Shown here in pieces: positions 6,923 through 39,985 of a DNA stretch of 64,000 nt. Where the stretch lies: the IMG/VR virus record IMGVR_UViG_3300028045_000001, positions 1 through 64,000 of that record; one strand, given 5' to 3'. How positions within the stretch are numbered: position 1 is the stretch's first letter; the number at the start of each line of letters is the position of its first letter. A program made the translations under genes and the position numbers. The notes below the pieces were generated by a model. The model did no database searches and was not told where the DNA came from. It was given only the letters and a program-made list of their open reading frames with translations. This DNA comes from a virus.

Positions 6923-7486
6923 ATGGCGTACTACTATTGTGAAAAGTGTGGCAATTTAATCGAATCGAGAACGGCTATAGTGAATTGTCAAAATACAGAC
7001 TGTTTAAATTCACAATCCTCTGTAGACATGTATCAGATTGATGATTTATTTGTGGAATTAATTACAGGATTACATAGCCGAGGGATCCCAACTACCGGCT
7101 GTTGTTCTGGACACATCCATAATGTTACAGAACTCATTAACCCATATGTTGCTTTTAAAGTTGACAATATACATGAAGACTATGTCAGAGAATTATTTAT
7201 ACCAGAAATGAATAATCTCATCTCGGAAGAATATGTGTTTAGCGTCGTACCACACAATAAGGAAGGGGGCACGTTCATTGTAAAATTAGGAGTAGTTCGT
7301 AGAGATGAGTCATATATTAAAAACAGCTTAACTCTAACTCTTTTAACCCACATAAATAATTTTTATAAATTTCTTCATATGCAACAAGTGACGACTGATT
7401 TAGATCTATTAACTACTACACAGAGTAAACGCGATTATGGAACTTATAATGCGGCCGGAGGCATACATGATCCAATTACACGATGA
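6923..7486 (+). CDS. Zn-ribbon / CCSGH-motif family protein, copy 1
   Basis: N-terminal CEKCG...C..TDC zinc ribbon, then IDDLFVELITGLHSRGIPTTGCCSGH. The same architecture occurs at 10510 and 11067. Confidence 0.6.
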   Translation: MAYYYCEKCGNLIESRTAIVNCQNTDCLNSQSSVDMYQIDDLFVELITGLHSRGIPTTGCCSGHIHNVTELINPYVAFKVDNIHEDYVRELFIPEMNNLISEEYVFSVVPHNKEGGTFIVKLGVVRRDESYIKNSLTLTLLTHINNFYKFLHMQQVTTDLDLLTTTQSKRDYGTYNAAGGIHDPITR

Positions 7487-7742
7487 CGAATTGATATGTC
7501 CCAATTGTTTAATCAGCAACTACTTCTTTATTGGAGGTGGCTCTTGGTCCCCAGATAAATGTCCAGAGTGCCGTAGGACAGACTTGCCTGGAAGCCTTAG
7601 TTCGTACGCTACTTTATCTTTTGTAAGTAAGTTTAAAGCAGCGAAATTATTTTCTAAAATGTGGAGTTGCCACCATGGCGTGCCTGATAAATTTTCTAAT
7701 AGAAAGTTTATTATGGACAATTTATGTAAGAAGAAGAAATAA
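7467..7742 (+). CDS. small zinc-ribbon protein
   Basis: GGAGG lies 5 nt upstream of the ATG at 7467 (MIQLHDDELICPNC...CPEC). The start overlaps the end of the upstream gene. Confidence 0.5.
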   Translation: MIQLHDDELICPNCLISNYFFIGGGSWSPDKCPECRRTDLPGSLSSYATLSFVSKFKAAKLFSKMWSCHHGVPDKFSNRKFIMDNLCKKKK

Positions 7743-7823
7743 TAATTGTGTCCGGATATAACTGGAATAAAGATGATGGAAGTTAATTAGTAAGTACAAA
7801 AAAATAAAACTTAGGGGGAATAC

Positions 7824-8060
7824 ATGAAAACTGCAAACAAACCTTCATTGCAGGCTGTGGAAGCAATAAAGCATATGACCGATTTCCAAGTACAATTCAG
7901 ATGGGTGGTAGAAGATTTAGATAAACGAGCAGATCTTCTGCAAGCAAAGATGGAATTTACTAATCGAAGAACAGCATACCTTTCGCGAAAAATGAAATCT
8001 ATGGAGCGTACACTAAAAGCGCTCCGCCTAAAGCGCCTTTCCAAAAGTAATAGATGTTAA
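7824..8060 (+). CDS. hypothetical small protein (78 aa)
   Basis: Conserved upstream block AAAAAATAAAACTTAGGGGGA. Paralogous to the 50-aa ORF at 8101. Confidence 0.55.
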   Translation: MKTANKPSLQAVEAIKHMTDFQVQFRWVVEDLDKRADLLQAKMEFTNRRTAYLSRKMKSMERTLKALRLKRLSKSNRC

Positions 8061-8100
8061 GTAATTTATAAAATTTAAAAAATAAAACTTAGGAGGACAG

Positions 8101-8253
8101 ATGACAATTCATAATGAACTTCCAGCTAAGCTATTTACAGAAGCATTTATAATGCATACTGAAAACACCTTATCGCAATTTAAAGAGATATTGGATGCTC
8201 TAAGTGAACGAATGGATGTTGTGCAGGCAAGCATGGAAAAACCGATCAGATGA
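8101..8253 (+). CDS. hypothetical small protein (50 aa), truncated paralog of 7824..8060
   Basis: Not in the ORF track because it is under 60 aa. Reads [50 protein letters not shown]. Has the same upstream block AAAAAATAAAACTTAGGAGGA. Its stop overlaps the ATG at 8250 (ATGA). Confidence 0.45.
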
Positions 8254-10379
8254 TCTCGGACCTTTCACATAGAATGGAATTAAATGAGGAGTATATGAAA
8301 AATCAAGAAACAGTAGTGATACCAACTTACGATAGCCAAATTTTATTGCAAACTGACATGGATGCATATAAGTTAGGATGCAAATGGGCAGTGTTAATAA
8401 TCAATAGTAGCTGCGAACTAAAGTTTGAAAACGAGATAAACCGTTCCGAAGCAGACGATCTCATATCCAATACAAAAAATATTATGCTACAAATACAAAC
8501 GACAATAGATAGTTTAGGTATACAAAAAACGATTGTACAAGACAACTCACTAATGGATGAACCAGGTATCATACGCGTAGCTCTCATAGATAAAGAAGAA
8601 GGCATCGTGGACGGAGATATCCCATTATGTATAGCGATATGCTCAGATGAAGATTTAATTGAAGCAGCCGGAATGTGGCTCACTATTGTGTATCGGTTAA
8701 AGATAGGGTGTGAGATTGATTACACTAAATCCGAAAAAGAACGACTCCCACATTTTGAATACCTTGCCACAGTACGACCTGCCAATGCGACAGACAAGGA
8801 AGATTCGACAATGCCAAGTACTTATATTCTCATCGCCCATGCTGTTGCGACTGCCCCTCGGAGTGAAGAGGAACTACGTAAGCATAAAGGTTCGTTTATA
8901 ACAAAGTGGCAAGGACAAAAGATTACCTTACCGTTAGATAAATCCGGAACATATGACTTCGAAATCCATTGGGGCGACGGTGCACACGATAAAGTCATAG
9001 GGTACGATCATAGTAGAATCTCACACACATATGCCGATGGCGAGGAGGTGCATACCATAACCATTTATGGGACTGTAGAAGGATTCGGGTTTGATTATTC
9101 ACCGGGGGCAGGCGTAGCGGATATACTCGATGTACTTCAGTGGGGAGATGTCAAGTTACATAACAACGGAGCTCAGTTTGCACATTGTACAAAGTTAAAG
9201 GGATTCAGTGCTAAGGATGTTCCGGATTTATCTGATGTTACCAATATGTGCGGTATGTTCGGTAAGGCTATTTCTTTCAACCAAGATATATCTAAATGGG
9301 ATGTAAGCAGTGTTACTAATATGGAGCAGATGTTCTGTTACGCCATAGTCTTCAATCAAAACATCTCCAATTGGGATGTGAGTAATGTTACTACTATGGC
9401 TGGCATGTTTAGAGGTGCCGCATCATTCAACCAAGATATATCCAAATGGGATGTAAGCGGTGTTACTAATATGAGGGATATGTTCCATGAGGATACTTCT
9501 TTCAATCAAGCCTTATCTAACTGGGATGTTAGTAGTGTTACCAATATGAACCGCATGTTTTATATGGCTACCTGTTTCAATCAGGAGATCTCTAAGTGGG
9601 ATGTTGGAAATGTTACCGATATGGATGGCATGTTCATGTATGCTGTATCCTTCAACCAAGATATCTCCAACTGGGATGTGAGTAGTGTTACTGGTATGGG
9701 TGCGATGTTCCAGCGAGCTTCATCCTTCGATCAAGACATATCCAAATGGGATGTTAGTAATGTTACCGATATGATGGACATGTTCCGTTGCGCCATAGTC
9801 TTTAACCAAGACATATCCAAATGGGATGTTAGTAGCGTAACTGATATGCAGGATATGTTCCATGCAGCTACATCCTTTAACCAGGATATCTCTAAGTGGG
9901 ATGTAAGCAGCGTAACTGATATGGAGGATATGTTCCATTCAGCTCCATACTTCAATCAGGATGTATCTAACTGGGACGTTAGTAGTGTTACTAATATGAA
10001 CGGCATGTTCCATGAAGCTAAGGCTTTCGATCAAGATATCTCCAAATGGAATGTCGGCAGTGTAACTGATATGCACGGGATGTTCCGAGGGGCTCTTTCC
10101 TTCGATCAAGCTATCTCTAACTGGGATGTGAGTAATGTTACCAACATGAGCGGGATGTTCTATAATGCTGTTCGTTTCGACAAATGTATATATAGCTGGG
10201 ATGTAAGCAAGGTCACTAATATGAGGTGTATGTTCTATGGGGCTACCTGTTTCAACCAGGATATTTCTGAGTGGGACGTGAGTAACGTCACTAATGTACA
10301 AAGCATAGTCGGGCTTGCTCCAAGTTTTAAGCGAAATCTCCCCAATTTTAAAGATTGCGCCAATGTGATAGTTAGATAA
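8250..10379 (+). CDS. BspA-like / DUF285 repeat protein with a unique ~200-aa N-terminal domain
   Basis: About 15 tandem 25-residue repeats (FNQDISxWDVSxVTxMxxMF), preceded by the typical TKWxG..ITLPL..G.YDF.I.WGDG module. Alternative start at 8295 (GAGGAG RBS). Confidence 0.8.
9220..10320 (+). repeat. tandem ~75-bp coding repeats (DUF285 units)
   Basis: Periodic AAYCARGAYATHTC...TGGGATGT...GTTAC blocks are visible in the DNA. Boundaries are approximate. Confidence 0.8.
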
Positions 10380-10440: not shown

Positions 10441-10444
10441 TACT

Positions 10445-11750: not shown

Positions 11751-12365
11751 ATGAAGAAGGAGTTACTGTTGGCTACAATTGCAATTGTGTGTATTTCCGG
11801 ATGTGATGTTAACCTTGATATTGGGCCTGATGAAAGCACCAGTGGAGATGTCACAAATCCATATGGCGTGCATTCTCATCGTAACGCGGCTGTTCCCAAA
11901 GCCTGGTCTAAATTCTGTGCCCGCTATAATCAACCAATTGCTTCGAAAGACTATGGAAAAAGGTTTCAGGATCTAAGGGAGATCTTTCACCCGCTATTCG
12001 ATAATTTCGATCATGTTGAAGACATAGATCATTGGGGAGTCGAAGAGCAATGGGATATCATGCCTGACGACGATCTTCGTGGGGATTGTGAGGACTTTGC
12101 ACTTACCCTAAGGGCTCGACTTATTAGAAATGGATTTCCCATGCATGATGTCCGCATTGCTACTTGTCATATATTGAGGAAAGGCAAGCCTATGCATCAC
12201 GCGGTCGCTTTGGTTGAGGTCGATAGAGGTGATGTCTATGTGGTTGATCCAAGTGGAATATATAAATTTAAAGAGTATCGAGTAGTGTCCTGGAATAAGG
12301 TATTGGATGAGAGTGGCATATATTGGGTCATGATAGATAATATCCCAGGTACAATCAAACTTTAG
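11751..12365 (+). CDS. LapG/BTLCP-like transglutaminase-fold cysteine protease lipoprotein, paralog 1
   Basis: Lipobox ISGC with Asp at +2. Has the WG.EEQWDIMPDDDLRGDCEDFALTLR nucleophile motif, then HHAV and VVD (C-H-D). Confidence 0.7.
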   Translation: MKKELLLATIAIVCISGCDVNLDIGPDESTSGDVTNPYGVHSHRNAAVPKAWSKFCARYNQPIASKDYGKRFQDLREIFHPLFDNFDHVEDIDHWGVEEQWDIMPDDDLRGDCEDFALTLRARLIRNGFPMHDVRIATCHILRKGKPMHHAVALVEVDRGDVYVVDPSGIYKFKEYRVVSWNKVLDESGIYWVMIDNIPGTIKL

Positions 12366-12366
12366 G

Positions 12367-12415
12367 GGTAGAGGGAGAGCATGCTCTCCCTCTACCTGAA
12401 CTCATTATTTTTTTT
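12367..12415 (+). terminator. intrinsic terminator
   Basis: 30-nt perfect palindrome GGTAGAGGGAGAGCATGCTCTCCCTCTACC, followed by a T8 tract. Confidence 0.8.
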
Positions 12416-12418
12416 ATT

Positions 12419-12428
12419 TATATGTTAC
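12419..12428 (+). promoter_or_regulatory. early-promoter-like motif variant TATATGTTAC
   Basis: One mismatch. A T tract lies immediately upstream. Lies 64 nt before the ATG at 12483. Confidence 0.45.
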
Positions 12429-12482
12429 AATCATAGTACAACGATGGTATGTGAAATTTAATTTATAGGGAGTAAAAAAAAT

Positions 12483-13520
12483 ATGGTAGCCAATATTGAA
12501 AAAATTTTAAGCACGATAGTTAGTGAATATAAATCATGGTGTCAAAAAAATAATGTTAAAGATTTTAATAATGAAGATTATAAATATTGTTTTATTGCGG
12601 ATTTTTTTAAACTTAATTCACAAGAACGACGCTTCACTGTTTTAATATCAAAGAAATGCTTAGAAGTATGTGAAGTCATACTCTATGGGGAATCTTTTGA
12701 ATATATGAAAAACGAAGAAAATTCTCTTTGGTTTTATACGGTAATAAATATGACATTCATGGAAAATTTACTTAACTGGGGTACTTCTATTCGTGTAGCA
12801 TGGTTTGAAATTGATGAGAAAGAATATTGTTTTACACATTTCACTCTTAATCTTGATATAGAATCATGGGGAGATTTTATTAAAGCGACTCGTGAATTTA
12901 CAAGAATGAGCTTAACGCCCACAGACTCAGTTGGATCTATAAATACAATTACATATGAAATGGGTTGTAGAATAGCAAAGGATATAATAAAATATTCTAA
13001 AACCAATGATTTATTATTTAAAGTAAAACAAATATTAGTGCGACTGCAGCACATAATGTTTAGCTTTAAAATAAATAAAAGATTTGTATTGACCAGCGAT
13101 AAGAACTTAAAAAATTATAATAATATAAAAATATATTTAATAGATAATACAGAACCACTTAATAGTTGTATATCGCATCTTGATCCAGATGATGTATTTA
13201 CAACGATACCACTTGACCGATTTTATTCGTTTGAAGAAGTAATTGATTCAACTACATTATGTATAAATGTATTGTCTGAAAAAGATTTAATCATTGCGTC
13301 TGGAATATATAGTTTTATTGGAAGCTGCTTATACAACGAATTTAGTATCGATTGTGTTGAAGATAGATGTATAGATGATTCTTATAAAATGCGCTTGCTG
13401 CAAAGCAAAGAAAAAAAGACACTATGTATAGAAAAGGGAGACTATGGCGAAAGGGGTCGTTTATATATAGATGATCTTGTCTATGTCACTATAGAAAATA
13501 TAGACGAAGTTAAATTTTAA
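12483..13520 (+). CDS. hypothetical protein (345 aa), very AT-rich gene
   Basis: The N-terminal 140 aa are paralogous to the next ORF (KKCLEVCEVILY, EENSLW, ESWGDFIKATREF). The C-terminal half resembles the N-terminal domain of the 8250 protein. Confidence 0.6.
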   Translation: MVANIEKILSTIVSEYKSWCQKNNVKDFNNEDYKYCFIADFFKLNSQERRFTVLISKKCLEVCEVILYGESFEYMKNEENSLWFYTVINMTFMENLLNWGTSIRVAWFEIDEKEYCFTHFTLNLDIESWGDFIKATREFTRMSLTPTDSVGSINTITYEMGCRIAKDIIKYSKTNDLLFKVKQILVRLQHIMFSFKINKRFVLTSDKNLKNYNNIKIYLIDNTEPLNSCISHLDPDDVFTTIPLDRFYSFEEVIDSTTLCINVLSEKDLIIASGIYSFIGSCLYNEFSIDCVEDRCIDDSYKMRLLQSKEKKTLCIEKGDYGERGRLYIDDLVYVTIENIDEVKF

Positions 13521-13536
13521 TCCAAGGAAAATGCGT

Positions 13537-14031
13537 ATGTCAGATAATATTAAAAAATACCTAGATGTACTAATTAAACAATATGAAGAATGGATTAAAG
13601 GTAGCGACTATTATGAGGCATGGGTTGAAGAAAATAAATATATTGAAAATTTTAATGATGTAGATTATAAATATTATTTCATTTCAGATGTTTTTGAATT
13701 TACTACATATGAAAATTACTACTCTGCATTAATGGCAAAAAAATGTCTGGAGGTATGTGAAACTATACTCTATAAGAATTTTGAATACATCAAAAATGAA
13801 GAAAATGCGCTATGGTATAACATAATAATTAATATGCCAATTTTAAATGATAAACTTAATTTAAATTCATCTATTCATGAAATACGATTTGAGATTGATG
13901 GGGGGACTAAATATGAAAGTTATTGGTTTCCATATAAATTAACTACTGAATCATGGGGAGAATTCATTAAAGCAATCCGCGAGTTTATACAAACGGAATT
14001 TTATAAACATAATGCACATATTGTAGTATAA
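13537..14031 (+). CDS. hypothetical protein, paralog of the N-terminal half of 12483..13520
   Basis: AAGGA lies 8 nt upstream of the ATG at 13537 (the alternative ATG at 13531 is only 2 nt from the RBS). Shares KKCLEVCETILY, EENALW and ESWGEFIKAIREF. Confidence 0.6.
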   Translation: MSDNIKKYLDVLIKQYEEWIKGSDYYEAWVEENKYIENFNDVDYKYYFISDVFEFTTYENYYSALMAKKCLEVCETILYKNFEYIKNEENALWYNIIINMPILNDKLNLNSSIHEIRFEIDGGTKYESYWFPYKLTTESWGEFIKAIREFIQTEFYKHNAHIVV

Positions 14032-14053
14032 ATGTCTTTCAATGTTTATTAGT

Positions 14054-14063
14054 TATATATAAC
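14054..14063 (+). promoter_or_regulatory. promoter-like motif variant TATATATAAC inside a 45-nt conserved block
   Basis: TGTCTTTCAATGTTTATTAGTTATATATAACTTGACTGAAAGAAG is nearly identical to the block at 15772-15815. Lies 71 nt before the ATG at 14125. Confidence 0.5.
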
Positions 14064-14124
14064 TTGACTGAAAGAAGGAAAGTATATAACTAATAAACTT
14101 AAATACATTGGAGGACACACTATC

Positions 14125-14739
14125 ATGAAAAAGAATATCTTAAATGCAATAGTTGTAATTTTTGTAGTATTGAATATGGTTGCTTGCGATAGCTCAGCCG
14201 ATGGAGATCAATCTCGATCTGGATCTTATAACAATCAAGTATCCAGGATCAAAGCTTATGATGAGTTCTTAGAGAGAGCAGGTCACGAAGTCCCAACAGC
14301 TCCTGAAAAATCCACTGCTGATCTTCAAAGAGTTTATAATGAACTTAGAGACAACTTCACTTACATGAGCGATAAGGAACAATACAATGTAGAAGATTAT
14401 TGGACCATCATGTCAGATGACAATCTTGTTGGAGATGCCGAAGACTTTGTGTTGACTCTTCGTAAGAAACTGATGGATGATGGGTTTAGACTGGCTAATG
14501 CACGAATAGCGCGATGCTATGTCCCAAGAGAAGACAATAAGTATGACTCTAAATACGTCAGCATCAACCATACTGTGCTTCTTGTAGAAGTCGAAATGGG
14601 TAGAGTGTATGTTGTAGATTCAGATGCCCATTATGATTTTTATAACTTTCCTGTGGTAGAGTGGGCTGACATGCTTGATGAAACTGGTGACTATTGGGTC
14701 AAGTTGGATATCCCTGGAAACAGCGATCGGATGATGTAA
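14125..14739 (+). CDS. BTLCP-like lipoprotein, paralog 2 (nucleophile Cys replaced by Ala)
   Basis: Lipobox MVAC with Asp at +2. The motif reads VGDAEDFVLTLR (GCC codon at 14437-14439) where its paralogs have GDCEDFA. His (NHTV) and Asp (VVD) are retained. Confidence 0.7.
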   Translation: MKKNILNAIVVIFVVLNMVACDSSADGDQSRSGSYNNQVSRIKAYDEFLERAGHEVPTAPEKSTADLQRVYNELRDNFTYMSDKEQYNVEDYWTIMSDDNLVGDAEDFVLTLRKKLMDDGFRLANARIARCYVPREDNKYDSKYVSINHTVLLVEVEMGRVYVVDSDAHYDFYNFPVVEWADMLDETGDYWVKLDIPGNSDRMM

Positions 14740-14743
14740 TAAC

Positions 14744-14801
14744 TATACAGGTACTGGGCGATATCGCCCAGTACCTGTATACAAATAAACATTATTTTTT
14801 T
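14744..14801 (+). terminator. intrinsic terminator
   Basis: Perfect 38-nt palindrome TATACAGGTACTGGGCGAT/ATCGCCCAGTACCTGTATA, then a T7 tract. Confidence 0.8.
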
Positions 14802-14839
14802 ACCATGTACTGATGTGCCGTCTTTCAATAAACCTTGGT

Positions 14840-14849
14840 TATATATAAC
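14840..14849 (+). promoter_or_regulatory. promoter-like motif variant TATATATAAC
   Basis: Same variant as at 14054 and 15790. Lies 65 nt before the ATG at 14905. Confidence 0.45.
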
Positions 14850-14904
14850 TTATATGAGGAATAAAAAATTATACAATCAATTTAACTACATTGGAGGACG
14901 GACT

Positions 14905-15702
14905 ATGAAAAAGAATATATTAATTGCGATATCTACACTATTCATGATGTTTACTATGGTTGCTTGTGATGGGAGCAGTGGTGGGGGTGGTGCCTCCGGC
15001 GATGACCTATCGGATTCCGGCGAGCTCACCGGAGATCTTGGCACAGACATCATCATAGATCAATATGTTGGGAACACTACTCCGATTATATCCGTTGGTC
15101 AACCAACTGGACGAGTGCGGGCGTATGATGATTTCTTAAGAAGGGATGGGCAGGATGTTCCAGTGGCTCCGAATAAAAATTCGTTTGATCTGAAAAAAGC
15201 GCATAAGGCATTCAGAAAAAAATTCACCTACATGCACGACATAGATAAATACGGTGTAGATGAATATTGGACTATTATGCCTGATGATGATCTTGTTGGG
15301 GATTGCGAAGACTTTGCTCTAACCTTTCGTGAGAAATTAATTGAAGCTGGATTTACTCCACCAAACGTTAGGATAGCAACCTGCGTAATGCCAAATGGAT
15401 ATAGAGATAATAGCCATCAGACTTATCATGCTGTACTCATCGTAGAAGTTTTTTGGGGTGAGGTGTATGTAGTAGATTCCAAGAGATGTTTGAAGTTCGA
15501 TAGCTTTAAAGTAATAGAGTGGGATAAAGTACTTGATGAAACTGGCAACTATTGGGTCAAGATGCGCATACCTAAGGATAAAGGAAATGGCGATCCAGGT
15601 AATGATAATAAAATTGAAGAAGAGGAAACCGAGAAGGAGGACATGGAAGACGACGAACGAAAAGATGGTCCAATAGGCTATTATGATAGACACTATGCAT
15701 AA
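14905..15702 (+). CDS. BTLCP-like cysteine protease lipoprotein, paralog 3
   Basis: GGAGG RBS. Lipobox MVAC with Asp at +2. A Gly/Asp-rich linker is followed by VGDCEDFALTFR, YHAV and VVD, then an acidic C-terminal tail. The tracked start at 14815 lies in the promoter cassette. Confidence 0.7.
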   Translation: MKKNILIAISTLFMMFTMVACDGSSGGGGASGDDLSDSGELTGDLGTDIIIDQYVGNTTPIISVGQPTGRVRAYDDFLRRDGQDVPVAPNKNSFDLKKAHKAFRKKFTYMHDIDKYGVDEYWTIMPDDDLVGDCEDFALTFREKLIEAGFTPPNVRIATCVMPNGYRDNSHQTYHAVLIVEVFWGEVYVVDSKRCLKFDSFKVIEWDKVLDETGNYWVKMRIPKDKGNGDPGNDNKIEEEETEKEDMEDDERKDGPIGYYDRHYA

Positions 15703-15709
15703 TTCAATC

Positions 15710-15766
15710 CTTACATGTTGTTGACCACACTTGGTCAACAACATGTAAGAATCATTTATTTTTTTT
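15710..15766 (+). terminator. intrinsic terminator
   Basis: 18-bp perfect stem CTTACATGTTGTTGACCA/TGGTCAACAACATGTAAG with a 4-nt loop, then a T8 tract. Confidence 0.8.
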
Positions 15767-15789
15767 AATGTCTTTCAATGTTTATTGGT

Positions 15790-15799
15790 TATATATAAC
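15790..15799 (+). promoter_or_regulatory. promoter-like motif variant TATATATAAC in the conserved 45-nt block
   Basis: Nearly identical to the block at 14030-14075. Lies 63 nt before the ATG at 15853. Confidence 0.5.
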
Positions 15800-15852
15800 T
15801 TGACTGAAAGAAGTAAAATATAAAACTAATTTAACTATATTGGAGGATGACA

Positions 15853-16470
15853 ATGAAAACAAATTTTATCAATACAATGATAATAATTACTGTAATGTTC
15901 GCTACAGCTGCATGTAAAGAAGATGCATCTATTAGTGATTATATGAATAGCGACGCCACCACAGCAGTTGAATCCATGGGTCGACCAACAAGAAGGGTTA
16001 GGGCTTATGATGACTTCTTAAAAAGAACTGGTAAGAAAGTTAATGCCATTCCAAAAAAGAACTCATTCGATCTTATACGAGTATACGACGAGCTCAGAGA
16101 TAATTTTACTTATATGCGCGACATGGAACAATACGGTGTGGAAGAATACTGGACTGTTATGTCGGACGATGATCCTGTTGGGGATTGTGAAGACTTTGCT
16201 CTAACTCTTCGTGCACGATTGATAGCCGATGGGTTCTCTCCAGTGAATGTCAGGATTGCAACTTGTTACGTACCAACCTCGTATACTAAATCCGATGATC
16301 CAGAAAAGCGACTGAATCATGCAGTTCTTATAGTTGAAATTAATAATGGCCAAGTGTATGTAGTTGATAATGGAGACCACTATAAGTTTCATGAATTTGA
16401 GGTAATTAACTGGGACCGCATGCTTGATGAGACTGGAAATTATTGGGTCAATATGAACGTGTCCAGCTAA
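15853..16470 (+). CDS. BTLCP-like cysteine protease lipoprotein, paralog 4
   Basis: GGAGGA lies 5 nt upstream. Lipobox TAAC (+2 Lys). Has VGDCEDFALTLR, NHAV and VVD. Confidence 0.7.
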   Translation: MKTNFINTMIIITVMFATAACKEDASISDYMNSDATTAVESMGRPTRRVRAYDDFLKRTGKKVNAIPKKNSFDLIRVYDELRDNFTYMRDMEQYGVEEYWTVMSDDDPVGDCEDFALTLRARLIADGFSPVNVRIATCYVPTSYTKSDDPEKRLNHAVLIVEINNGQVYVVDNGDHYKFHEFEVINWDRMLDETGNYWVNMNVSS

Positions 16471-16483
16471 AGATTAGACCTAA

Positions 16484-16526
16484 TGTAGGGTGGGCAATAT
16501 GCCCACCCTGTAGTGTATTTTTTTAT
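16484..16526 (+). terminator. intrinsic terminator
   Basis: AGGGTGGGC/GCCCACCCT stem extended by G-U pairs, with a 5-nt loop, then a T7 tract. Confidence 0.7.
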
Positions 16527-16554
16527 ATTTCTATAAAACTAATTGGAGGATGTT

Positions 16555-17157
16555 ATGAAAGGGATCTTTATAAACGTGACCCTAATTGGCCTACTGCTAC
16601 TTGGACTCGCTTGCGAAGAAACAGAAGTTACCCATTCAAAAATAGGTAAGCATAATAGATGGAGGCATGCCGGGTACGATGACTTTCTTAAGACACGTGG
16701 GCAAAAAATTTTCGATAACCCAAAGAAGTTCCTTGTCGATTTTCGAAAGATATACGACGAGCTTAGAGATAATTTCACGTATATGGGTGACGAAGAACAG
16801 TATGGCAAAGAAGACTATTGGACCATTATGCCTGACGACAATCTGGTTGGGGATGATGAGGATTTTGTGCTAACCCTCAGAGAAAGATTAGTTAGTAGTG
16901 GTTTTAATAAAGCTAACGTAAGGATTGCCAGATGTTATAAACCGAGGGAGGATAATAAATATGATTCGGAGTACCTTATGTTCAATCATGTTGTGGCCCT
17001 TGTTGAAATTGAAATGGGAAGGTTGCTTGTAGCAGATACAGATGACTACTACAACTTCTATCGTTTTCCAGTAGTCAGTTGGTACGACATGCTTGATGAG
17101 ACTGGCGACTATTGGGTCAAGTTGGATATGCCAGGAAATTCGGACAAAATGGAATAA
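16555..17157 (+). CDS. BTLCP-like lipoprotein, paralog 5 (nucleophile Cys replaced by Asp)
   Basis: GGAGGA RBS. Lipobox GLAC (+2 Glu). The motif reads VGDDEDFVLTLR (GAT at 16855-16857). Shares the REDNKYDS insert and the ...DETGDYWVKLD.PGNSD tail with paralog 2. Confidence 0.7.
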   Translation: MKGIFINVTLIGLLLLGLACEETEVTHSKIGKHNRWRHAGYDDFLKTRGQKIFDNPKKFLVDFRKIYDELRDNFTYMGDEEQYGKEDYWTIMPDDNLVGDDEDFVLTLRERLVSSGFNKANVRIARCYKPREDNKYDSEYLMFNHVVALVEIEMGRLLVADTDDYYNFYRFPVVSWYDMLDETGDYWVKLDMPGNSDKME

Positions 17158-17159
17158 CT

Positions 17160-17187
17160 ACAACGCCTGGACATGTCCAGGCGTTGT
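17160..17187 (+). terminator. hairpin between paralogs 5 and 6
   Basis: 28-nt palindrome ACAACGCCTGGACATGTCCAGGCGTTGT. No clear T tract, so it may be only a partial terminator or a processing site. Confidence 0.5.
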
Positions 17188-17219
17188 GTAACTTATTTAA
17201 ATACATTGGAGGACATGTC

Positions 17220-17861
17220 ATGAAAAATAAAATTATCAGTATGATGTTAATGGGTGCAATTGTCCTTAATGTAGTTGCATGTGTAGAAGTGACAACTACC
17301 ACAACTACTACAGCTACTGGCGAACCTATTGTAATGGGCGACTACGATATCTCAGGTAATGAAACCCCACTCGAATACATTGATCGACCTTCAAGGAGAG
17401 TTCGATTTTATGATGATTTTTTGAGAAGGACTAATAAGAAAGTTCCCTTAAGTCCTAAAAAGAATGTTGGTGATCTTAAAAAAATATATAAGAAACTTAG
17501 GTCTACTTTTACCTATGTGTCTGACATAAATCAATATGGTGTGGATGATCATTGGGTAGTTATGCCGGACAATAATCGCACAGGGGACTGTGAGGATTTT
17601 GCTTTGACTCTTCGTGAAAAGTTAATTGCAGATGGGTTTGAAAAATCCAACGTGAGATTCGCCACGTGTTACACTCCTAAAAAATATGAGGAAGATGCAA
17701 AGAACAATTACCATGCGGTCCTTATTGTTGAGTTATTTTGGGGAAAAGTGTATGTTGTGGATTATAAGTATTGTGTAGAGTTTCGTAAATTCCCTGTTGA
17801 GAAATGGGATCATGTATTAGATGAGACGGGGAAGTATTGGATCCGGATGGAGATTCGTTAA
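17220..17861 (+). CDS. BTLCP-like cysteine protease lipoprotein, paralog 6
   Basis: GGAGGA RBS. Lipobox VVAC (+2 Val). A Thr-rich linker is followed by TGDCEDFALTLR, YHAV and VVD. Confidence 0.7.
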   Translation: MKNKIISMMLMGAIVLNVVACVEVTTTTTTTATGEPIVMGDYDISGNETPLEYIDRPSRRVRFYDDFLRRTNKKVPLSPKKNVGDLKKIYKKLRSTFTYVSDINQYGVDDHWVVMPDNNRTGDCEDFALTLREKLIADGFEKSNVRFATCYTPKKYEEDAKNNYHAVLIVELFWGKVYVVDYKYCVEFRKFPVEKWDHVLDETGKYWIRMEIR

Positions 17862-17906: not shown

Positions 17907-18962
17907 ATGGCAGAAGAAGCGTATGAAGAAGAGCTGCATTTATTAGCCCTTATGAAAAAACTATTCACGATGGGCGTTGTTTGTTGCAGTGTTGTTTGGG
18001 CAGGATTTAATGTTTGCAGCACTGTCTGGGATTGGGGCAAGGCAAAGTATGAGACACACAAGCAACAATCCCATACTGAGAAACGGTATCTACGACGAAT
18101 GAAATCACTCGTTGCCAGCTACAATGCTCTCGAATCACAAGTTGCCAAAAACGATAGACGATTAACTGAAATTGAAGGAACGATGACCAGTAAATCCGTT
18201 GGACGAACTTCGAACTCATCTAAGGTCAAACTGTGGCCAAGTAATACTATCAGATACCACATTGATGAGAAAATTGAGGATTGGGATTTAACCCAAATGA
18301 TCGATGAGGCATTTGAAAAAATAAGTGAGAATACTTGTTTAAAATTTCATAAGCTTCCGATACTTTGGAAGGATAGGAGTAGCTTTCTGCTAATCACATT
18401 GACGGAGAGTGACGAGGACTATCCTAATGCGACATTGGGCTATTCGCAAAGAAATCAAGTTGAATTGAGTATGTATTCTGAATTTGATACTGTATACCAT
18501 GAGTTTCTACATGCACTTGGATTGCCCCATGAACACCAAAGACCTGATGCTGAAATAGTCGTTAATTTTGATAACCTTGAAGGTGATAGTACTTGGTACA
18601 GAAAATATCCAAAAGATATGTACCCATACCCTTTGGATAAATTCATCTTTGATGCTGACTCCATTATGGCATATTGCTCATATAGCGAGACAACACAACG
18701 AGGGAAGAAAACTATTAATTACGGGAGAGCGCAGGGGTCACTCAGTCCCACTCCAATTGACTACATGAAGATCAATTGTATGTACTGTGGCTCTAATCCT
18801 CCACCGAAAGAGACCCAGTGGTACATGGCACTACTGAACAGGTATTCCCATAAAGGCTCACCAAAGAAGTTGAAGGTGGTCATAGAAGGGGAAGATGGCG
18901 AACGTGATGTACTTGTCACTTTAGATGAAATGGCATCTTTTGGTAATAAAAAAGAATACTGA
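17907..18962 (+). CDS. astacin-like (M12A) zinc metalloprotease with N-terminal membrane anchor
   Basis: Full astacin signature HEFLHALGLPHEHQRPD (HExxHxxGxxHE) and the Met-turn SIMAY. Has an N-terminal hydrophobic segment LFTMGVVCCSVVWAGF. Confidence 0.75.
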   Translation: MAEEAYEEELHLLALMKKLFTMGVVCCSVVWAGFNVCSTVWDWGKAKYETHKQQSHTEKRYLRRMKSLVASYNALESQVAKNDRRLTEIEGTMTSKSVGRTSNSSKVKLWPSNTIRYHIDEKIEDWDLTQMIDEAFEKISENTCLKFHKLPILWKDRSSFLLITLTESDEDYPNATLGYSQRNQVELSMYSEFDTVYHEFLHALGLPHEHQRPDAEIVVNFDNLEGDSTWYRKYPKDMYPYPLDKFIFDADSIMAYCSYSETTQRGKKTINYGRAQGSLSPTPIDYMKINCMYCGSNPPPKETQWYMALLNRYSHKGSPKKLKVVIEGEDGERDVLVTLDEMASFGNKKEY

Positions 18963-19085
18963 TAGTTACATGACCGGGAAAACAGATCCTCTTGGCGGCT
19001 GGTATAGTGAAGGTATAATGGGATTTGTGAGAATAGAAGACATGATAGATTTTAGTAGGTAAATTAAAACGAAAGGAGACGTAAA

Positions 19086-20084
19086 ATGAAAAAAGGTAAA
19101 ACAACAATCAAGGGCAGTAATGCAAAAATGGCTACATTGGCAATTTGTGGGATAGTTAACATCATTTTTATTTGGACTTTTTGTAGTGCAACGGTGACTG
19201 TTGCAGAGGATGTCGCTGTAACGCACGAGGTACAAGAAGAACAAGTTCCATTTTCAATGGAAGAGCATCGTGTACGATGTCGAAAAGCTACCACTTTAGG
19301 TAGAGAGCACCTTCTGTCAAAGCCCCACACTGTGCAAGGATGGCCCGATAAGGTCATTCGATACTATATCGATAAAGACAGATTGACGGATCCATATGTT
19401 GTTGAAGAAGTAATAAATGTATTCGACGCCATAGCAGAAACCACATGTTTAGACTTCATCCGACTTGATGGACCAGAATCATACAATGTGCAGGTTAAGG
19501 TATTATTGGTAACATCCACTACAAATGGGAGGTACCCCACTTCAACATTAGGATACAATGAGATCGCGAATATAATTAGATTGCGCAATGATTCTCAAAT
19601 ATGGACTATCTATCATATGGTTTTACATGCGTTGGGTTTGACTCATGAGAACCAGCGACCCGACGCAGAGCTTCTTGTTGATATGGATAACATACAAGAA
19701 GAGTTTAAATGTAATTTTGAGAAGCTCCCTGCAAGTTGCTTTCTGTACCCAGTAGATAAGTTCATTTTTGAGGTAAGTTCCATTATGTCGTATAGGCCAT
19801 ACTCTGCCTGTAAAGATTGTAGCAAAAGAACTATCGACTACGGGCGCGAGAAGGAGGGACAACGTGAACCGACATCTATTGATTATATGAAATTGGAGTA
19901 CATTTACTGTGGACTTAATCCGCCACCTAAAGAAACCCAATGGTATTTGTCTTTTCTACATAGGTACCATAATCACTCAAAGCCTGAGGATTTGACGGTT
20001 ACAATAAAAAGTAACGGTATAACTTCATACGTTAATTTTGGTGGCATGGCGTCGCCACTCGGCGATCATGTGAAACCGGAGTAA
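19086..20084 (+). CDS. astacin-like paralog with the catalytic Glu replaced (HMVLH)
   Basis: Reads YHMVLHALGLTHENQRPD. The three Zn-ligand His residues and the Met-turn SIMSY are retained, but the HExxH Glu is Met (ATG at 19617-19619). Has a signal-peptide-like N-terminus. Confidence 0.7.
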   Translation: MKKGKTTIKGSNAKMATLAICGIVNIIFIWTFCSATVTVAEDVAVTHEVQEEQVPFSMEEHRVRCRKATTLGREHLLSKPHTVQGWPDKVIRYYIDKDRLTDPYVVEEVINVFDAIAETTCLDFIRLDGPESYNVQVKVLLVTSTTNGRYPTSTLGYNEIANIIRLRNDSQIWTIYHMVLHALGLTHENQRPDAELLVDMDNIQEEFKCNFEKLPASCFLYPVDKFIFEVSSIMSYRPYSACKDCSKRTIDYGREKEGQREPTSIDYMKLEYIYCGLNPPPKETQWYLSFLHRYHNHSKPEDLTVTIKSNGITSYVNFGGMASPLGDHVKPE

Positions 20085-20180: not shown

Positions 20181-21470
20181 ATGAAAACAGACACTACCGC
20201 GTTCGTAACAAAGTGGGAAGGGAAACGAGTCACGTTACCATTACACAAAAATGGAACATTTGATTTTGTAGTAGACTGGGGCGACGGTGTAGCAGATCAT
20301 ATAACTGAACATGATCAAAAAGAAATTATACACGATTATGAGGATGGCCAGTTAACGCATGAAGTAGCTATATCTGGCACCATAGAAGGGTTTGGATTTA
20401 TTGTCGATGACCCACTTAGTTACACTGCCATAAATTCGCTCCCCTTTGGATCTTTTCCATTAAATAACACCGACGGCTTTGCGCAGCAGTCCAGGACCAT
20501 TGCATTAGTAAAGAAATTCACGAACTGGTGTATGGGGTTTGTCACATCCAAGCAAGCCATAGTGTCAGGACCAAAGGAAGGAAGCCAATTTATGGACTTT
20601 ATTAAGTCAGCCCAAGCTATGGCCCCAAAACCGAGCGACTGCATATTACTCGATGTCTTACAGTGGGGGGCCGTTAAGTTACACAATGGAGGGTGTCAAT
20701 TTACAGATTGTACAAAGTTAAAAGGCTTCAGTGCTAAGGATGTTCCAGATTTATCTAATGTTACTAATATGATGGGCATGTTCCTCAGAGCTACATCGTT
20801 CAATCAAGACTTATCTAAATGGGATGTGGGTAGTGTTACTGATATGAAAGATATGTTCTGTGGCGCTACTTCCTTTAACCAAAATATCTCTAAATGGGAT
20901 GTGAGTAGTGTTACTGATATGAGCGGTGCGTTCCTCAGGGCTGCATCTTTCAACCAAGACATATCTAATTGGGACGTTAGCAGTGTCACTAATATGAAAG
21001 ATATGTTCTTGGGTGCCGAAGTCTTCGATCAAGACATATCTAACTGGGATGTTGGCAAGGTTACTGATATGGCGAATATGTTTAATGGCGCTACATTATT
21101 CAATCAACCCATCTCTAACTGGAATGTTAACAGCGTCACCGATACAGCTGGGATGTTCTATGAAGCTTCATCCTTTAACCAAGACATATCCAATTGGGAC
21201 GTGGGTAGGGTAACTGACATGAGGTTTATGTTCCACAATGCCACTGCCTTCAATCAAGATATTTCTAAGTGGAATGTTGGCAGTGTTAGGAATATGGATT
21301 GTATGTTCATGTCGGCTGTATCCTTCAACCAAGATATCTCTAACTGGGATGTGAGTAGCGTAACTGCTATGGGAGGTATGTTCTATGAAGCCAGCTCATT
21401 CGATCAGAATATATCCGATTGGGATGTAATCAACACGACCAAAGGAAGTCCCATTAAACAAACAAATTAA
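20181..21470 (+). CDS. BspA-like / DUF285 repeat protein, copy 2
   Basis: The N-terminal MKTDTTAFVTKWEGKRVTLPL...VDWGDG is nearly identical to the ORF at 62864. About 9 repeats of 25 residues. No signal peptide. Confidence 0.8.
   Translation: MKTDTTAFVTKWEGKRVTLPLHKNGTFDFVVDWGDGVADHITEHDQKEIIHDYEDGQLTHEVAISGTIEGFGFIVDDPLSYTAINSLPFGSFPLNNTDGFAQQSRTIALVKKFTNWCMGFVTSKQAIVSGPKEGSQFMDFIKSAQAMAPKPSDCILLDVLQWGAVKLHNGGCQFTDCTKLKGFSAKDVPDLSNVTNMMGMFLRATSFNQDLSKWDVGSVTDMKDMFCGATSFNQNISKWDVSSVTDMSGAFLRAASFNQDISNWDVSSVTNMKDMFLGAEVFDQDISNWDVGKVTDMANMFNGATLFNQPISNWNVNSVTDTAGMFYEASSFNQDISNWDVGRVTDMRFMFHNATAFNQDISKWNVGSVRNMDCMFMSAVSFNQDISNWDVSSVTAMGGMFYEASSFDQNISDWDVINTTKGSPIKQTN
20750..21430 (+). repeat. 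tandem ~75-bp coding repeats (DUF285 units)
   Basis: Same periodic unit as at 9220-10320. Boundaries are approximate. Confidence 0.75.
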
Positions 21471-24665: not shown

Positions 24666-25136
24666 ATGTACAATCAAGACTGTAAAGAGGTAGCTGGCGA
24701 TATAATACAATTGGCCATAGAAGGGAGATTTGATGTCATTGTTCACGGTTGTAATTGTTTCTGTACCATGGGGGCAGGACTTGCAAAAGCAATTAGAGCA
24801 GAATTTCCAGAAGCTTATAAAGCGGATCTCAATACAAAGAAAGGAGATGCATCAAAACTCGGTACCTACACCAAAGCAACGGTAGATAGAAATGGAAACA
24901 CTATAACTATAATCAATGCTTACATCCAGTTTGAGTATGGATGGGTTGGAACTATGGCTCAGTACGAAGCCATACGAAACGTTTGTATAAAATTAAAATC
25001 TGAATTTTCTGGGAAACGATTTGGATTCCCTTTAATTGGGGCAGGATTAGCTGGGGGCAACTGGAAAATCATCGAGATTATTTTGTGTAAGGAATTACAA
25101 GGTGAAGACTATACTGTAGTTAAGTTGCCAACTTAA
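24666..25136 (+). CDS. macro domain protein (ADP-ribose binding/hydrolase fold)
   Basis: Reads GDIIQLA..GRFDVIVHGCNCFCTMGAGLAKAIRAEFPEAY ... FGFPLIGAGLAGGNW. This is the typical short bacterial/phage macro domain pattern. Confidence 0.75.
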   Translation: MYNQDCKEVAGDIIQLAIEGRFDVIVHGCNCFCTMGAGLAKAIRAEFPEAYKADLNTKKGDASKLGTYTKATVDRNGNTITIINAYIQFEYGWVGTMAQYEAIRNVCIKLKSEFSGKRFGFPLIGAGLAGGNWKIIEIILCKELQGEDYTVVKLPT

Positions 25137-25361: not shown

Positions 25362-26045
25362 GTGAACACTAAATATAAAAATATGATAGCTGATTATCCA
25401 GAAAGATTGTTCGTTCGTCAAGAAGAAATGAATTTAATGGCCGCCATCATATCCAAGGTTGAACCCTATTATAACCTAAATGATGGTGCGCATAAAGTGA
25501 GCCATGCGGTCGATGTAATGTTACTTGCTATGACTCTCCAAAAAGCCACTATGAAAGGCGTTATAGGTTACTATGAGGATAGAAGAAACATAATAGCATC
25601 CGCGTTGCTACACGACATATTTGTACATAGGGGTCGAGCCTCCCATGAAACGGCAGCAGTATTTGAATTAAATTTTGGCACACTAAAGGATTGGTTTACA
25701 CAAATAATTGAAGAGTTTAAATTAGATAGGAATATTGTAGTAGATGCCATTAATGAACATAGGGCATCGTATAGTGGCGCGTACACATCAATTATATCTG
25801 AGTATGTATCAGGTGCGGATAGAGGTCGTCCTGATATCGATCGTTTATGTAAGAGGGTTAAATCCGGGACTGATGCCACACAAGATGAGCATATGATCGA
25901 TCATATAATTGAGAAATTTGGAAGAGAGGGGTATGCGAGATGGTCAGATAGCTATAAACTGCACTTTGGGTCAGAGTTACGACAAATGCAGGACACTATA
26001 GGGGATAGAAGTAGATTGACTGAAATATATGGAAATCAGATGTAG
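25362..26045 (+). CDS. HD-domain phosphohydrolase
   Basis: GGAGG lies 5 nt upstream of a GTG start. Has H..SHAVDV ... IIASALLHDIFVH (H...HD). The C-terminal half is shared with the ORF at 26927. Confidence 0.65.
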   Translation: MNTKYKNMIADYPERLFVRQEEMNLMAAIISKVEPYYNLNDGAHKVSHAVDVMLLAMTLQKATMKGVIGYYEDRRNIIASALLHDIFVHRGRASHETAAVFELNFGTLKDWFTQIIEEFKLDRNIVVDAINEHRASYSGAYTSIISEYVSGADRGRPDIDRLCKRVKSGTDATQDEHMIDHIIEKFGREGYARWSDSYKLHFGSELRQMQDTIGDRSRLTEIYGNQM

Positions 26046-33538: not shown

Positions 33539-34597
33539 ATGAGCTATTCTGATTTAAAAACAGGGGTATCCATTTTCACGAGTCTCTTACGAAAGGTGGA
33601 CGAGATAGGCCCCAAAGCATTAAGTGACTATGTGCGACCTGCGACAATCATGGGGTCCGTTGTGGTTGACATTTCCCTGGGAGATGAGGACATCATACTG
33701 CCGTTGGCGTCCATGTTGAATTCTTTCTACATAGGGTACATAACTACTGCATTAGAATTAAACACTATAATCGAGGGGGGTAAAACTGTAAGAGATGCGT
33801 TGACTATAGTCTCATCTAATAACAACTATATAGAGTTACTAGAGGAAGTCGATGAAAAGTTTTTATCTTGCGAATTAACTGGCGAGTACGAAGTATCCCT
33901 ACAGGCCGATGGTGGCAAACAAGGTAACAAGGTAGAGGCTTCTGTATTCTCTGGGAAAGTAGTCGAACTGAATATTCGCTCAAAAGAACATGATCGCCCG
34001 ATTTCCATAAAACTAATAGTTCAACTACTTTCTCGACAGGTACAGCAATCTGTGATAGAGCAACTCTTTGCAGTTAGCAACAAATCAACAATAGATCAAA
34101 GATGGACTATGTTTAAAACTGGCGAAATTTCCTTTTGGAAAGATTTCATATGGGAGCGGGACCTCGTTAAACGCCATAGGAGCGCACTAAAAAAGGACGA
34201 CACTGGGTACCTATTTGATGAGTTACAATCCCGTTCAAATAAATTAACGAGAAATATCGAAACGAGTGTCGATATTGGTAAGGTGTCTCAGAATTCCGCC
34301 AATAACATACTTATAGTTGAAAAGCGGTTTTTTACGCAGATGGTAAAACGCTTGGGTATAAAAATTGATGACTTTTCCAGCAGGCAGCGATTTATGAGCA
34401 ATAACTACTGCCTTATTATAGTTGTTGTTGATATCATGTACAGTTCATTGGAAGTTTATTTCAATGGCATACGAACGAAAGCCGATTACAGTTTCAAAGC
34501 CGTGCTATCAAACTATGGTGGCGGAGGCAGTAGTAAGACCGAGTTAGCCGAGATCATGGCGCAGTTTCAAGCTGGGAGTTCGCCAAAAGTATTTTAA
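33539..34597 (+). CDS. hypothetical protein (352 aa)
   Basis: AGAGGG RBS. No motif recognised. Confidence 0.6.
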   Translation: MSYSDLKTGVSIFTSLLRKVDEIGPKALSDYVRPATIMGSVVVDISLGDEDIILPLASMLNSFYIGYITTALELNTIIEGGKTVRDALTIVSSNNNYIELLEEVDEKFLSCELTGEYEVSLQADGGKQGNKVEASVFSGKVVELNIRSKEHDRPISIKLIVQLLSRQVQQSVIEQLFAVSNKSTIDQRWTMFKTGEISFWKDFIWERDLVKRHRSALKKDDTGYLFDELQSRSNKLTRNIETSVDIGKVSQNSANNILIVEKRFFTQMVKRLGIKIDDFSSRQRFMSNNYCLIIVVVDIMYSSLEVYFNGIRTKADYSFKAVLSNYGGGGSSKTELAEIMAQFQAGSSPKVF

Positions 34598-34612
34598 TGG
34601 ACGGGAGAAAAC

Positions 34613-35602: not shown

Positions 35603-35713
35603 ATGATAATAATATGAACTCTATTTGCACGTCGGATTATAAATAATTTTTTTTTAGCATGCTGGACTTTATCCGAGTCCGTTTATTTACACACCATCCT
35701 AGGAGGATAGACA

Positions 35714-36727: not shown

Positions 36728-36765
36728 TAATAAGTTCCCAAAGAAGATAGTGTGTGTGGTCCCAG

Positions 36766-36803
36766 CAACTCCTACGCAGCCATGCGTAGGAGTTGTATTT
36801 TTT
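36766..36803 (+). terminator. intrinsic terminator
   Basis: 13-bp stem CAACTCCTACGCA/TGCGTAGGAGTTG with a 4-nt loop, then TATTTTTT. Confidence 0.8.
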
Positions 36804-36810
36804 ATGATTG

Positions 36811-36823
36811 TCATTATATAAAA
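36811..36823 (+). promoter_or_regulatory. second promoter-like motif TCATTATATAAAA
   Basis: Lies exactly 41 nt upstream of the ATG at 36852. The same motif at the same spacing precedes the ATG at 39986. Confidence 0.35.
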
Positions 36824-36851
36824 ATTAACCTACTCTGGAGATGTATTAAAT

Positions 36852-37898: not shown

Positions 37899-37915
37899 TG
37901 GAGGATACTTAAGTT

Positions 37916-38800: not shown

Positions 38801-38821
38801 ATTACGAATTAAGGAGCTACG

Positions 38822-39868: not shown

Positions 39869-39893
39869 TGTGACCTTTGAAATAGTAAATTTT

Positions 39894-39924
39894 AAATAGT
39901 CGGTACTTAGAGTACCGACTATTT
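39894..39924 (+). terminator. intrinsic terminator
   Basis: 14-bp stem AAATAGTCGGTACT/AGTACCGACTATTT. Confidence 0.7.
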
Positions 39925-39944
39925 ATATAATAAAAAACATTTGA

Positions 39945-39957
39945 TCATTATATAAAT
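39945..39957 (+). promoter_or_regulatory. second promoter-like motif TCATTATATAAAT
   Basis: Lies exactly 41 nt upstream of the ATG at 39986. Confidence 0.35.
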
Positions 39958-39985
39958 TTACTAAAGTAATATAGGAGATGTATAA

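Follow-up and report, generated by a model that had tools for sequence, protein, structure and literature searches.

Adjacent astacin-like genes, one canonical and one lacking the catalytic Glu, in a distant phiKZ-like jumbo phage

The window analyzed here (64,000 nucleotides, positions 1 to 64,000 of IMG/VR virus record IMGVR_UViG_3300028045_000001) is, by its gene content, part of a distant phiKZ-like jumbo phage. It encodes two adjacent, paralogous proteins of the astacin family of zinc metalloproteases. P0001 (17907..18962, 351 aa) has a canonical active site, and P0002 (19086..20084, 332 aa) is a candidate pseudopeptidase in which the HExxH motif has become HMxxH; both genes and all features within them are on the + strand. 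On balance, we think it probable that P0001 is an exported, membrane-tethered zinc endopeptidase and P0002 a non-cleaving, binding pseudopeptidase, and that together with the lipoprotein BTLCP proteases encoded beside them they act on host envelope proteins during infection.

Both proteins match the PF01400 Astacin profile well above its cut-off of 22.5 bits (66.7 bits and E = 2.8e-18 for P0001, 68.0 bits and E = 1.1e-18 for P0002), and the matches span profile positions 2-188 of 189. Scores so far past chance mean that the motifs are not random HExxH occurrences. The only NCBIfam match is LegP (NF045530), at 39.9 and 50.7 bits (E = 3e-10 and 2e-13), which does not reach the 300-bit equivalog cut-off. 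A sequence search of the PDB with the pair matches astacin, meprins, TLL-1 and myroilysin. AlphaFold2 (AF2) models built from 93-sequence alignments have a mean predicted local distance difference test score (pLDDT) of 84 for P0001 and 81 for P0002, with the catalytic domains mostly above 90, and both models are predicted to have the two-subdomain metzincin fold of the astacin type. The top 20 Foldseek matches in the PDB are all members of the astacin family (ZHE1, TLL-1, BMP-1, HCE-1, astacin and meprins). Target-normalised template modeling (TM) scores are 0.73-0.79 for entries that contain only the catalytic domain (up to 0.79 for P0002); myroilysin ranks below the animal astacins, and matrix metalloproteinases much further down. 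A preliminary description of this region, made from the DNA letters, had named a profile search as a check on membership in MEROPS family M12A, and membership holds there as well as in the sequence matches to solved structures and in the predicted fold.

P0001 contains the zinc-binding consensus HEFLHALGLPHEHQRPD (18498..18548, residues 198-214, read from the sequence). Its core, HEFLHALGLPH (residues 198-208), provides H198, E199, H202, G205 and H208, and the family-specific Glu (E209) stands right behind the third His; among the 90 homologs aligned below, these columns vary little or not at all. The Met-turn SIMAY (18660..18674, residues 252-256) places Tyr256 at the position of the fifth zinc ligand. 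The zinc motif of P0002, HMVLHALGLTHENQRPD (19614..19664, residues 177-193), is degenerate: the general-base Glu is replaced by Met178 (ATG, 19617-19619) and the motif reads HMVLH. P0002 keeps the family-specific Glu (E188) and a Met-turn, SIMSY (19779..19793, residues 232-236), with Tyr236. The preliminary description had assigned the full astacin signature and SIMAY, behind a membrane anchor, to the first gene, with which sequence, profile and hydropathy agree. For the second gene it had noted a signal-like N-terminus, three retained His, a retained Met-turn and the change of Glu to Met, and these we find base for base.

We aligned the proteins with 90 short homologs and counted the columns that are at least 75% conserved (n = 25). 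P0001 and P0002 have the residue typical of the family in almost every one, including the three His, the Gly, the family Glu, Arg-x-Asp and Ser-x-Met-x-Tyr, among others. Relative to its phage relatives, P0002 departs at these 25 columns solely in the change from Glu to Met. As far as its sequence tells, P0001 thus has an astacin domain that is complete although divergent. The same comparison classes P0002 as a non-peptidase homolog of the family and not an active member, because HMVLH lacks the general-base Glu that is present in 90/90 aligned homologs.

The substitution is not an artefact, because the Met codon is the same in at least four independent assemblies and a Glu codon (GAA or GAG) is 2-3 substitutions away from ATG; a sequencing or assembly error, which the preliminary description had considered as a possible source of HMxxH, is ruled out. 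Over nt 17907-20084 (2,178 nt) there is no difference between the contigs from ERZ27250555 and SRR8436476, and the ERZ27250540 contig differs from the others at one intergenic position (19019, T to A). Gene calling on a contig from Joint Genome Institute (JGI) sample 3300027996 gave precisely the same 332-aa P0002 sequence. Independent gene callers predict both the 351 and the 332 aa products on public contigs, the longest of which with both genes is 239,960 bp. A Shine-Dalgarno-like GGGGGG run precedes the P0001 start (ATG 17907), and AAGGAG precedes that of P0002 (ATG 19086).

The two proteins are paralogs that are 43% identical over 242 aa (E = 7e-62). An exhaustive HMMER search of 1.84 billion representative proteins (3,100 matches at E ≤ 1e-3) found a single close relative, P0003 (cluster member P0151; E = 6.5e-32), and everything else is at E ≥ 3e-25. 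A word-indexed search of 5.8 billion proteins found nothing beyond the proteins themselves, the paralog and P0003. P0003 is a 614 aa protein with, in order, a 240-aa cytoplasmic domain, a Lys-flanked membrane segment, a helical region, an astacin domain with a canonical HELGH and a PPPKDVQW tail. It has in common with the pair the membrane segment, the helical stalk, the astacin domain and the PPPK(E/D)xQW tail; its 240-aa N-terminal domain has no counterpart in the window. P0151 is encoded at locus L021, a contig of 191,840 bp from a sample that also yielded the pair. L021 has a macro-domain gene (61% amino acid identity), DUF285 genes and the astacin in common with the window and little else, and is probably another phage. 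P0001 and P0002 are 44% identical to each other and either is 31-33% identical to P0003. Because the pair is closer mutually than to P0003, the duplication and the loss of the Glu took place inside this phage lineage.

By its pattern of conservation, P0002 is a retained pseudopeptidase, because it keeps the other conserved residues and has evolved no faster than P0001. With P0003 as the outgroup in a Tajima-type relative-rate test, there are 20 changes unique to P0001 and 17 unique to P0002 (chi2 = 0.24). P0002 could instead be a functionless, decaying duplicate, with only the first gene of importance; it has lost the one residue indispensable for catalysis and a 22-residue segment of the stalk described below, and its linker is predicted to be disordered. 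We find this very unlikely, given an intact frame of 332 codons behind a strong AAGGAG ribosome-binding site, a confidently modeled catalytic domain, the same sequence in at least four samples, the absence of rate acceleration (17 vs 20 changes), and the presence of all remaining conserved residues together with the two disulfide cysteines and a private C-terminal domain.

Among the best 150 of the 3,100 relatives, 7/177 zinc motifs lack the Glu, mostly in animal proteins that pair a live domain with a dead one; Met at the general-base position occurs only in P0002 among the 177 motifs from the matches listed. Two-domain animal astacins are present among the matches of the exhaustive search (P0004, P0018, P0041, P0061 and P0078), and most have one canonical and one Glu-less domain: HQLMH and HELLH in Trichuris trichiura A0A077YYB9, HEILH and HLVLH in the tardigrade Paramacrobiotus, and HEVMH and HIFVH in Manduca sexta. 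In the jellyfish Sanderia both astacin domains are Glu-less. Such live/dead pairs may recur across the astacin family.

Each protein has one hydrophobic segment, near the N-terminus (Kyte-Doolittle 19-residue maxima of 1.88 for P0001 and 2.13 for P0002). In P0001 the predicted membrane segment (17961..18029, about residues 19-41) contains the only 19-residue windows above 1.6. The AF2 model has a single helix over residues 4-90 that takes in both the membrane segment and about 50 residues of stalk, then a stretch with pLDDT below 50 (residues 90-103), then the catalytic domain; the stalk (residues 42-90) and the floppy linker (residues 91-104) together correspond to 18030..18218. P0002 has a predicted signal peptide or signal anchor (19128..19199, about residues 15-38; hydropathy and flank charges), with five Lys before and three acidic residues after it (5 K/R before vs 0 after), and signal peptidase may cleave it at CSA/T or TVA/E. 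Its AF2 model has a helix at residues 12-34 followed by disorder at 37-78. The positive-inside pattern is clear for P0002, and also for P0003 (4 K/R before, 1 after). P0002 alone has a Cys in the linker (C65, in the disordered part), and P0001 and P0003 have the helical stalk instead; no cap-type Cys-switch propeptide is recognized in the pair.

A cysteine pair at the positions of astacin Cys42-Cys198 is invariant (C144/C294 in P0001, C121/C275 in P0002 and C389/C565 in P0003), a correspondence that we derived by aligning the proteins with astacin (TCLxF and YCG motifs); the second astacin disulfide is absent from the pair. The N-terminal hydrophobic segment and the retention of both of these cysteines point to export. 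Both astacins were considered as lipoproteins and rejected, since LAIC and FNVC, by reading, do not fit a lipobox, unlike the BTLCPs. The catalytic domain of P0001 is followed by a C-terminal mini-domain that starts at NPPPKETQWY (18795..18959; helix, beta-hairpin and helix, from the alignment and AF2). This domain of about 55 residues is common to P0001, P0002 and P0003 only, and the profile positions at the start of the tail are covered by few of the 150 matches listed besides P0003.

From these features we infer that P0001 is catalytically active, that P0002 is inactive and that both are directed at the cell envelope. The N-terminal hydrophobic segment would insert both proteins into the host cytoplasmic membrane or pass them through it, so the catalytic domains would face the periplasm or the cell surface. 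P0001 is most likely an endopeptidase tethered to the membrane on its helical stalk of about 50 residues. The floppy linker just before the catalytic domain is a candidate site of maturation cleavage, and a cut there may free and activate the enzyme. In mature astacins the new N-terminus is buried against the family Glu; because P0001 keeps this Glu, linker cleavage could both activate and release it. P0002 retains the fold, the zinc ligands, the Met-turn and the cleft, and most likely binds the same or a related substrate, or its sister enzyme, without cleaving. The pair and the BTLCP array would most plausibly remodel host envelope proteins, for example by shedding or masking receptors or adhesins.

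Cleavage in the floppy linker would also free the P0001 catalytic domain, and the proteases might be released at or before lysis and digest proteins outside (animal-host matrix, mucus, biofilm matrix or competitors) as "moron" or virulence-type factors. The bacterial astacins that have been studied, such as flavastacin and the elastase myroilysin, are secreted and act on external or eukaryotic proteins, and bacteria that carry astacins are mostly animal-associated (PMC9848320). LegP, the sole NCBIfam match (far below its cut-off), is named as a Dot/Icm effector. Against this, a membrane tether with a stalk in both P0001 and P0003 favors action at the membrane, and the neighboring BTLCPs are lipoproteins retained by the cell. 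Phages of the phiKZ type are also not known to act as lysogenic converters, and we regard action outside the cell as unlikely.

Several points weigh against an exported pair that remodels the envelope. The flanks of the P0001 membrane segment do not favor an N-in/C-out orientation (2 K/R before and 3 after by reading; 0 and 1 by the hydropathy window); we infer this orientation from the relatives and the conserved disulfide cysteines, and take the flank charges as undecided. By reading, none of the three N-terminal sequences has an FxGD aspartate-switch before its catalytic domain, and how the pair would be kept latent and activated is speculative because it has no recognizable astacin prosegment. 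The stabilizing XXRXDRD motif is preserved only in part (RPDAE): the stretch reads HQRPDAE, NQRPDAE and HQREDAN in the three phage proteins, which keep the first Arg and the Asp and have Ala in place of the second Arg, vs Arg in 97% of homologs. The envelope-remodeling role itself is drawn solely from the neighbors and the topology.

Directly upstream of the pair are six lipoprotein BTLCP (Peptidase_C93, LapG-type) paralogs (11751..17861, + strand; Pfam and alignment). The lipobox Cys is invariant in 6/6. Four of the six retain the nucleophile Cys of GDCEDFA, and the His and Asp are kept throughout; ORF 14125-14739 has GDAEDF (Ala) and ORF 16555-17157 has GDDEDF (Asp). The pair therefore follows an array with four copies that have the Cys and two that lack it, which bears out, at the level of sequence, the earlier claim of live and dead BTLCP copies next to the astacins. 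The two Cys-less proteins are most alike each other (REDNKYDS and GNSD[RK]M in common). In isolated phages there is a weak BTLCP match in Rhizobium phage L338C only.

The two families might act as one set of exported proteases in which live and dead copies are matched (one plus one for the astacins, four plus two for the BTLCPs): the live enzymes would shed host surface proteins such as receptors or adhesins, and the dead ones would clamp or mask the same targets uncut or regulate their sisters, for superinfection exclusion or for release from debris, with phages as an unrecognized reservoir of astacins. As a whole we hold this extended version to be quite unlikely.

The window is assigned to a phage because it encodes a tail tube, a gp087-like protein, a divergent family B DNA polymerase and pieces of an RNA polymerase beta subunit. 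Its family matches include an SNF2 helicase, the Phage_TTP_15 tail tube, divDNApol (the divergent family B DNA polymerase), a GroEL-like chaperonin and an RNA polymerase beta piece (phrog_2962). One protein of 957 aa aligns with phiKZ gp087 over 98% of its length at 25% identity, and likewise with homologs in 280 phage records. The structural proteins, the piece of a multisubunit RNA polymerase and the divergent DNA polymerase are as expected of a phiKZ-like phage. At the DNA level, no record resembling the region was found by megablast against the GenBank phage collection.

Among 50,697 GenBank phage records, tblastn found no astacin (full-length P0001 at E ≤ 1e-5, the P0002 catalytic domain at E ≤ 1, and another phage-type lipoprotein astacin at E ≤ 0.01), and PHROGs has no astacin family. 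The sole astacin-like viral structure in BFVD is from Lutzomyia reovirus 2 (A0A0H4M9A8), with no phage astacin there, and a 2023 survey of the family (>25,000 sequences) names one virus, a reovirus that is the same Lutzomyia reovirus 2 (PMC9848320). A motif-pattern scan of 185,579 GTDB species genomes found no close relative and only weak motif-level matches in assorted metagenome-assembled genomes, which point to no host or donor. The matches listed from a JGI metagenome scan, which missed the source contig itself, include only weak motif-level metzincins. Clade-specific patterns had no match in IMG/VR, and a looser pattern found at least 12 distant astacin-like loci on viral contigs there. 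The rarity of phage astacins asserted in the preliminary description thus stands for GenBank records and PHROGs, and is to be qualified by these IMG/VR contigs.

Ten of the 12 loci (L022-L031), on contigs of 26-31% GC and mostly of 46-90 kb, encode astacins of 211-241 aa with a lipoprotein signal peptide and a canonical HExxH (for example, L022:7920-8555, L025:7734-8390 and L024:7731-8408). The IMG/VR contigs examined carry large terminase, tail fiber or baseplate genes. One lipoprotein astacin, P0010, is among the best matches of the exhaustive search. As a group they appear to be phage accessory proteases of a class not yet described. The astacin gene of L025 and that of L024 are beside tail-fiber or baseplate genes, on the opposite strand.

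Proximity of an astacin gene to tail-fiber or baseplate genes in these two contigs, and a weak, below-cut-off match to a phiKZ internal head protein at 2336-3355 of the window, would fit proteases that are carried in the virion (inside the head or on the tail) and act on the envelope of the next host at entry. Virion assembly, however, takes place in the cytoplasm, in the phiKZ-like phages next to and around a nucleus-like compartment, and the pair has export or anchor segments and a disulfide pair. In the IMG/VR contigs the astacin genes run opposite to the tail genes, and their products have lipoprotein signal peptides; P0001 and P0002 have no similarity to PHROG structural families. A virion-borne role is, in our estimate, extremely unlikely.

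The predicted topology also bears on lysis. With a periplasm-facing catalytic domain, spaced from the inner membrane by the stalk of about 50 residues, P0001 might cut outer-membrane proteins or the protein tethers between outer membrane and peptidoglycan, with the dead copy as a regulator, and the genes could be transcribed in one direction together with those of other exported hydrolases. We consider a lysis accessory very improbable: no endolysin, holin or spanin was recognized among the genes scanned around the pair, astacins have no known part in phage lysis, and the lipoprotein astacins of other phage contigs are among tail genes and not in lysis cassettes.

Terminator-like hairpins are present between BTLCP genes at 15710, 16484 and 17159, and none was found between the last BTLCP gene and P0001. 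The 123-nt spacer between the astacin genes contains a putative sigma-70-like site, TTGGCG-16-TATAAT (18992..19019, + strand), from a consensus scan only; the assembly difference at 19019 is the final T of this site. The motif TTATATAT(A/T)AC(T), which we liken to the AT-rich early-promoter consensus of phiKZ, is enriched (25 matches vs about 7-11 expected, and no shuffle reached 25). It often precedes + strand genes by 60-90 nt, three of them BTLCP genes, with sites at 14053-14065, 14839-14851 and 15789-15801 and also at 10444, 57493, 62135 and others. As a phage promoter of the pair it was rejected, being upstream of neither astacin gene. Inside the BTLCP array, ORFs 12483-13520 and 13531-14031 are of unknown function and unrelated to BTLCP but paralogs of each other, with KCLEVCE.ILY...Y.KNEEN.LW in common; they have no Pfam match and no signal peptide.

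DUF285/PARCEL-repeat proteins are encoded at 8250-10379, 20181-21470 and 62864-63955 (Pfam E down to 3e-147; phrog_17273), and the gene at 20181-21470 is directly downstream of the pair. The L021 contig has a DUF285 gene (7071-8135) three genes upstream of its astacin, 58-64% identical to the window DUF285. No signal peptide was seen on reading the N-termini of the DUF285 proteins at 20181 and L021:7071. A macro-domain protein (24666-25136, Pfam E = 1.3e-5) and an HD-domain protein (25362-26045, E = 6e-5) are encoded a few kb downstream of the pair. Downstream of the L021 astacin, four consecutive genes (L021:14830-16917) encode repeated Cys/His-rich units (GCKVEGCD..H.AKGYC.KHY.Q..KHGK) that resemble tandem zinc-ribbon or treble-clef repeats. 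Elsewhere in the window, seven ORFs of 294-352 aa follow one another on the + strand (33539-41023); of the two compared with PHROGs, ORF 33539 matches phrog_3239 (E = 1.6e-39, function unknown) and ORF 35714 matches nothing.

Astacins are generally viewed as animal enzymes with sporadic bacterial xenologues. The astacin domain itself is known; its carriage by a bacteriophage is unprecedented. The layout, with an anchor and stalk, a private C-terminal domain and no recognizable prosegment, is unusual, and the live/dead duplication mirrors the one in the neighboring cysteine proteases. With an astacin pair in a jumbo phage, a close relative on a second large contig and about 10 tailed-phage contigs with lipoprotein astacin genes, some phages appear to have exported metzincins among their accessory proteins. 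If phages are a reservoir of astacins, this would complicate the view of the prokaryotic members as simply animal-derived xenologues. Live/dead pairing in two adjacent families makes a compact system in which to ask what viral pseudoproteases do, as each dead copy has lost one catalytic residue relative to a live sister and reversion is feasible (M178E for P0002). If the target is a receptor or adhesin, the pair would represent a way not known before for phages to manipulate the host surface, by proteolysis; otherwise, it is a well-documented but ordinary case of an accessory protease.

Compared with MEROPS M12A (crayfish astacin 1AST, BMP-1/TLL-1, meprins and fish hatching enzymes), the pair has the full PF01400 profile, the zinc motif with the family Glu (less the general base in P0002), SxMxY, the Cys pair and, as predicted, the fold. 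It is only 17-23% identical to known astacins, however, and has an N-terminal membrane anchor with a helical stalk in place of a signal peptide and Asp-switch prosegment. It also differs in lacking the second disulfide, in having RPDAE for XXRXDRD and a private C-terminal mini-domain of about 55 residues, and in being encoded by a bacteriophage. Like the bacterial astacins (myroilysin 5GWD/5ZJK, flavastacin and Legionella LegP), it has an astacin domain in a prokaryotic context, and myroilysin is matched both by sequence (E = 5e-3) and by fold, but the pair scores far under the family cut-offs (40-51 bits vs 300 for LegP). The lipoprotein astacins of L022-L031 (for example, P0010) are likewise phage-encoded, exported domains and among the best matches (E = 1e-18 to 1e-22). 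Unlike the pair, to which they are 25-37% identical, they have a lipobox signal peptide and no stalk, C-terminal mini-domain or dead paralog that we could see.

For P0002 the nearest parallels are ADAM7 (HQLGH) and ADAM29 (HHLGH), pseudopeptidases with intact His ligands (PMC11266112; astacin pseudopeptidases are absent from the coverage of this review), and the animal tandem astacins. As in these proteins, the Glu of HExxH is replaced and the zinc ligands and Met-turn are kept, and in the tandems the altered domain is likewise beside a canonical copy. The animal tandems differ in having the two domains in one chain, whereas the live and dead copies of the phage are separate genes.

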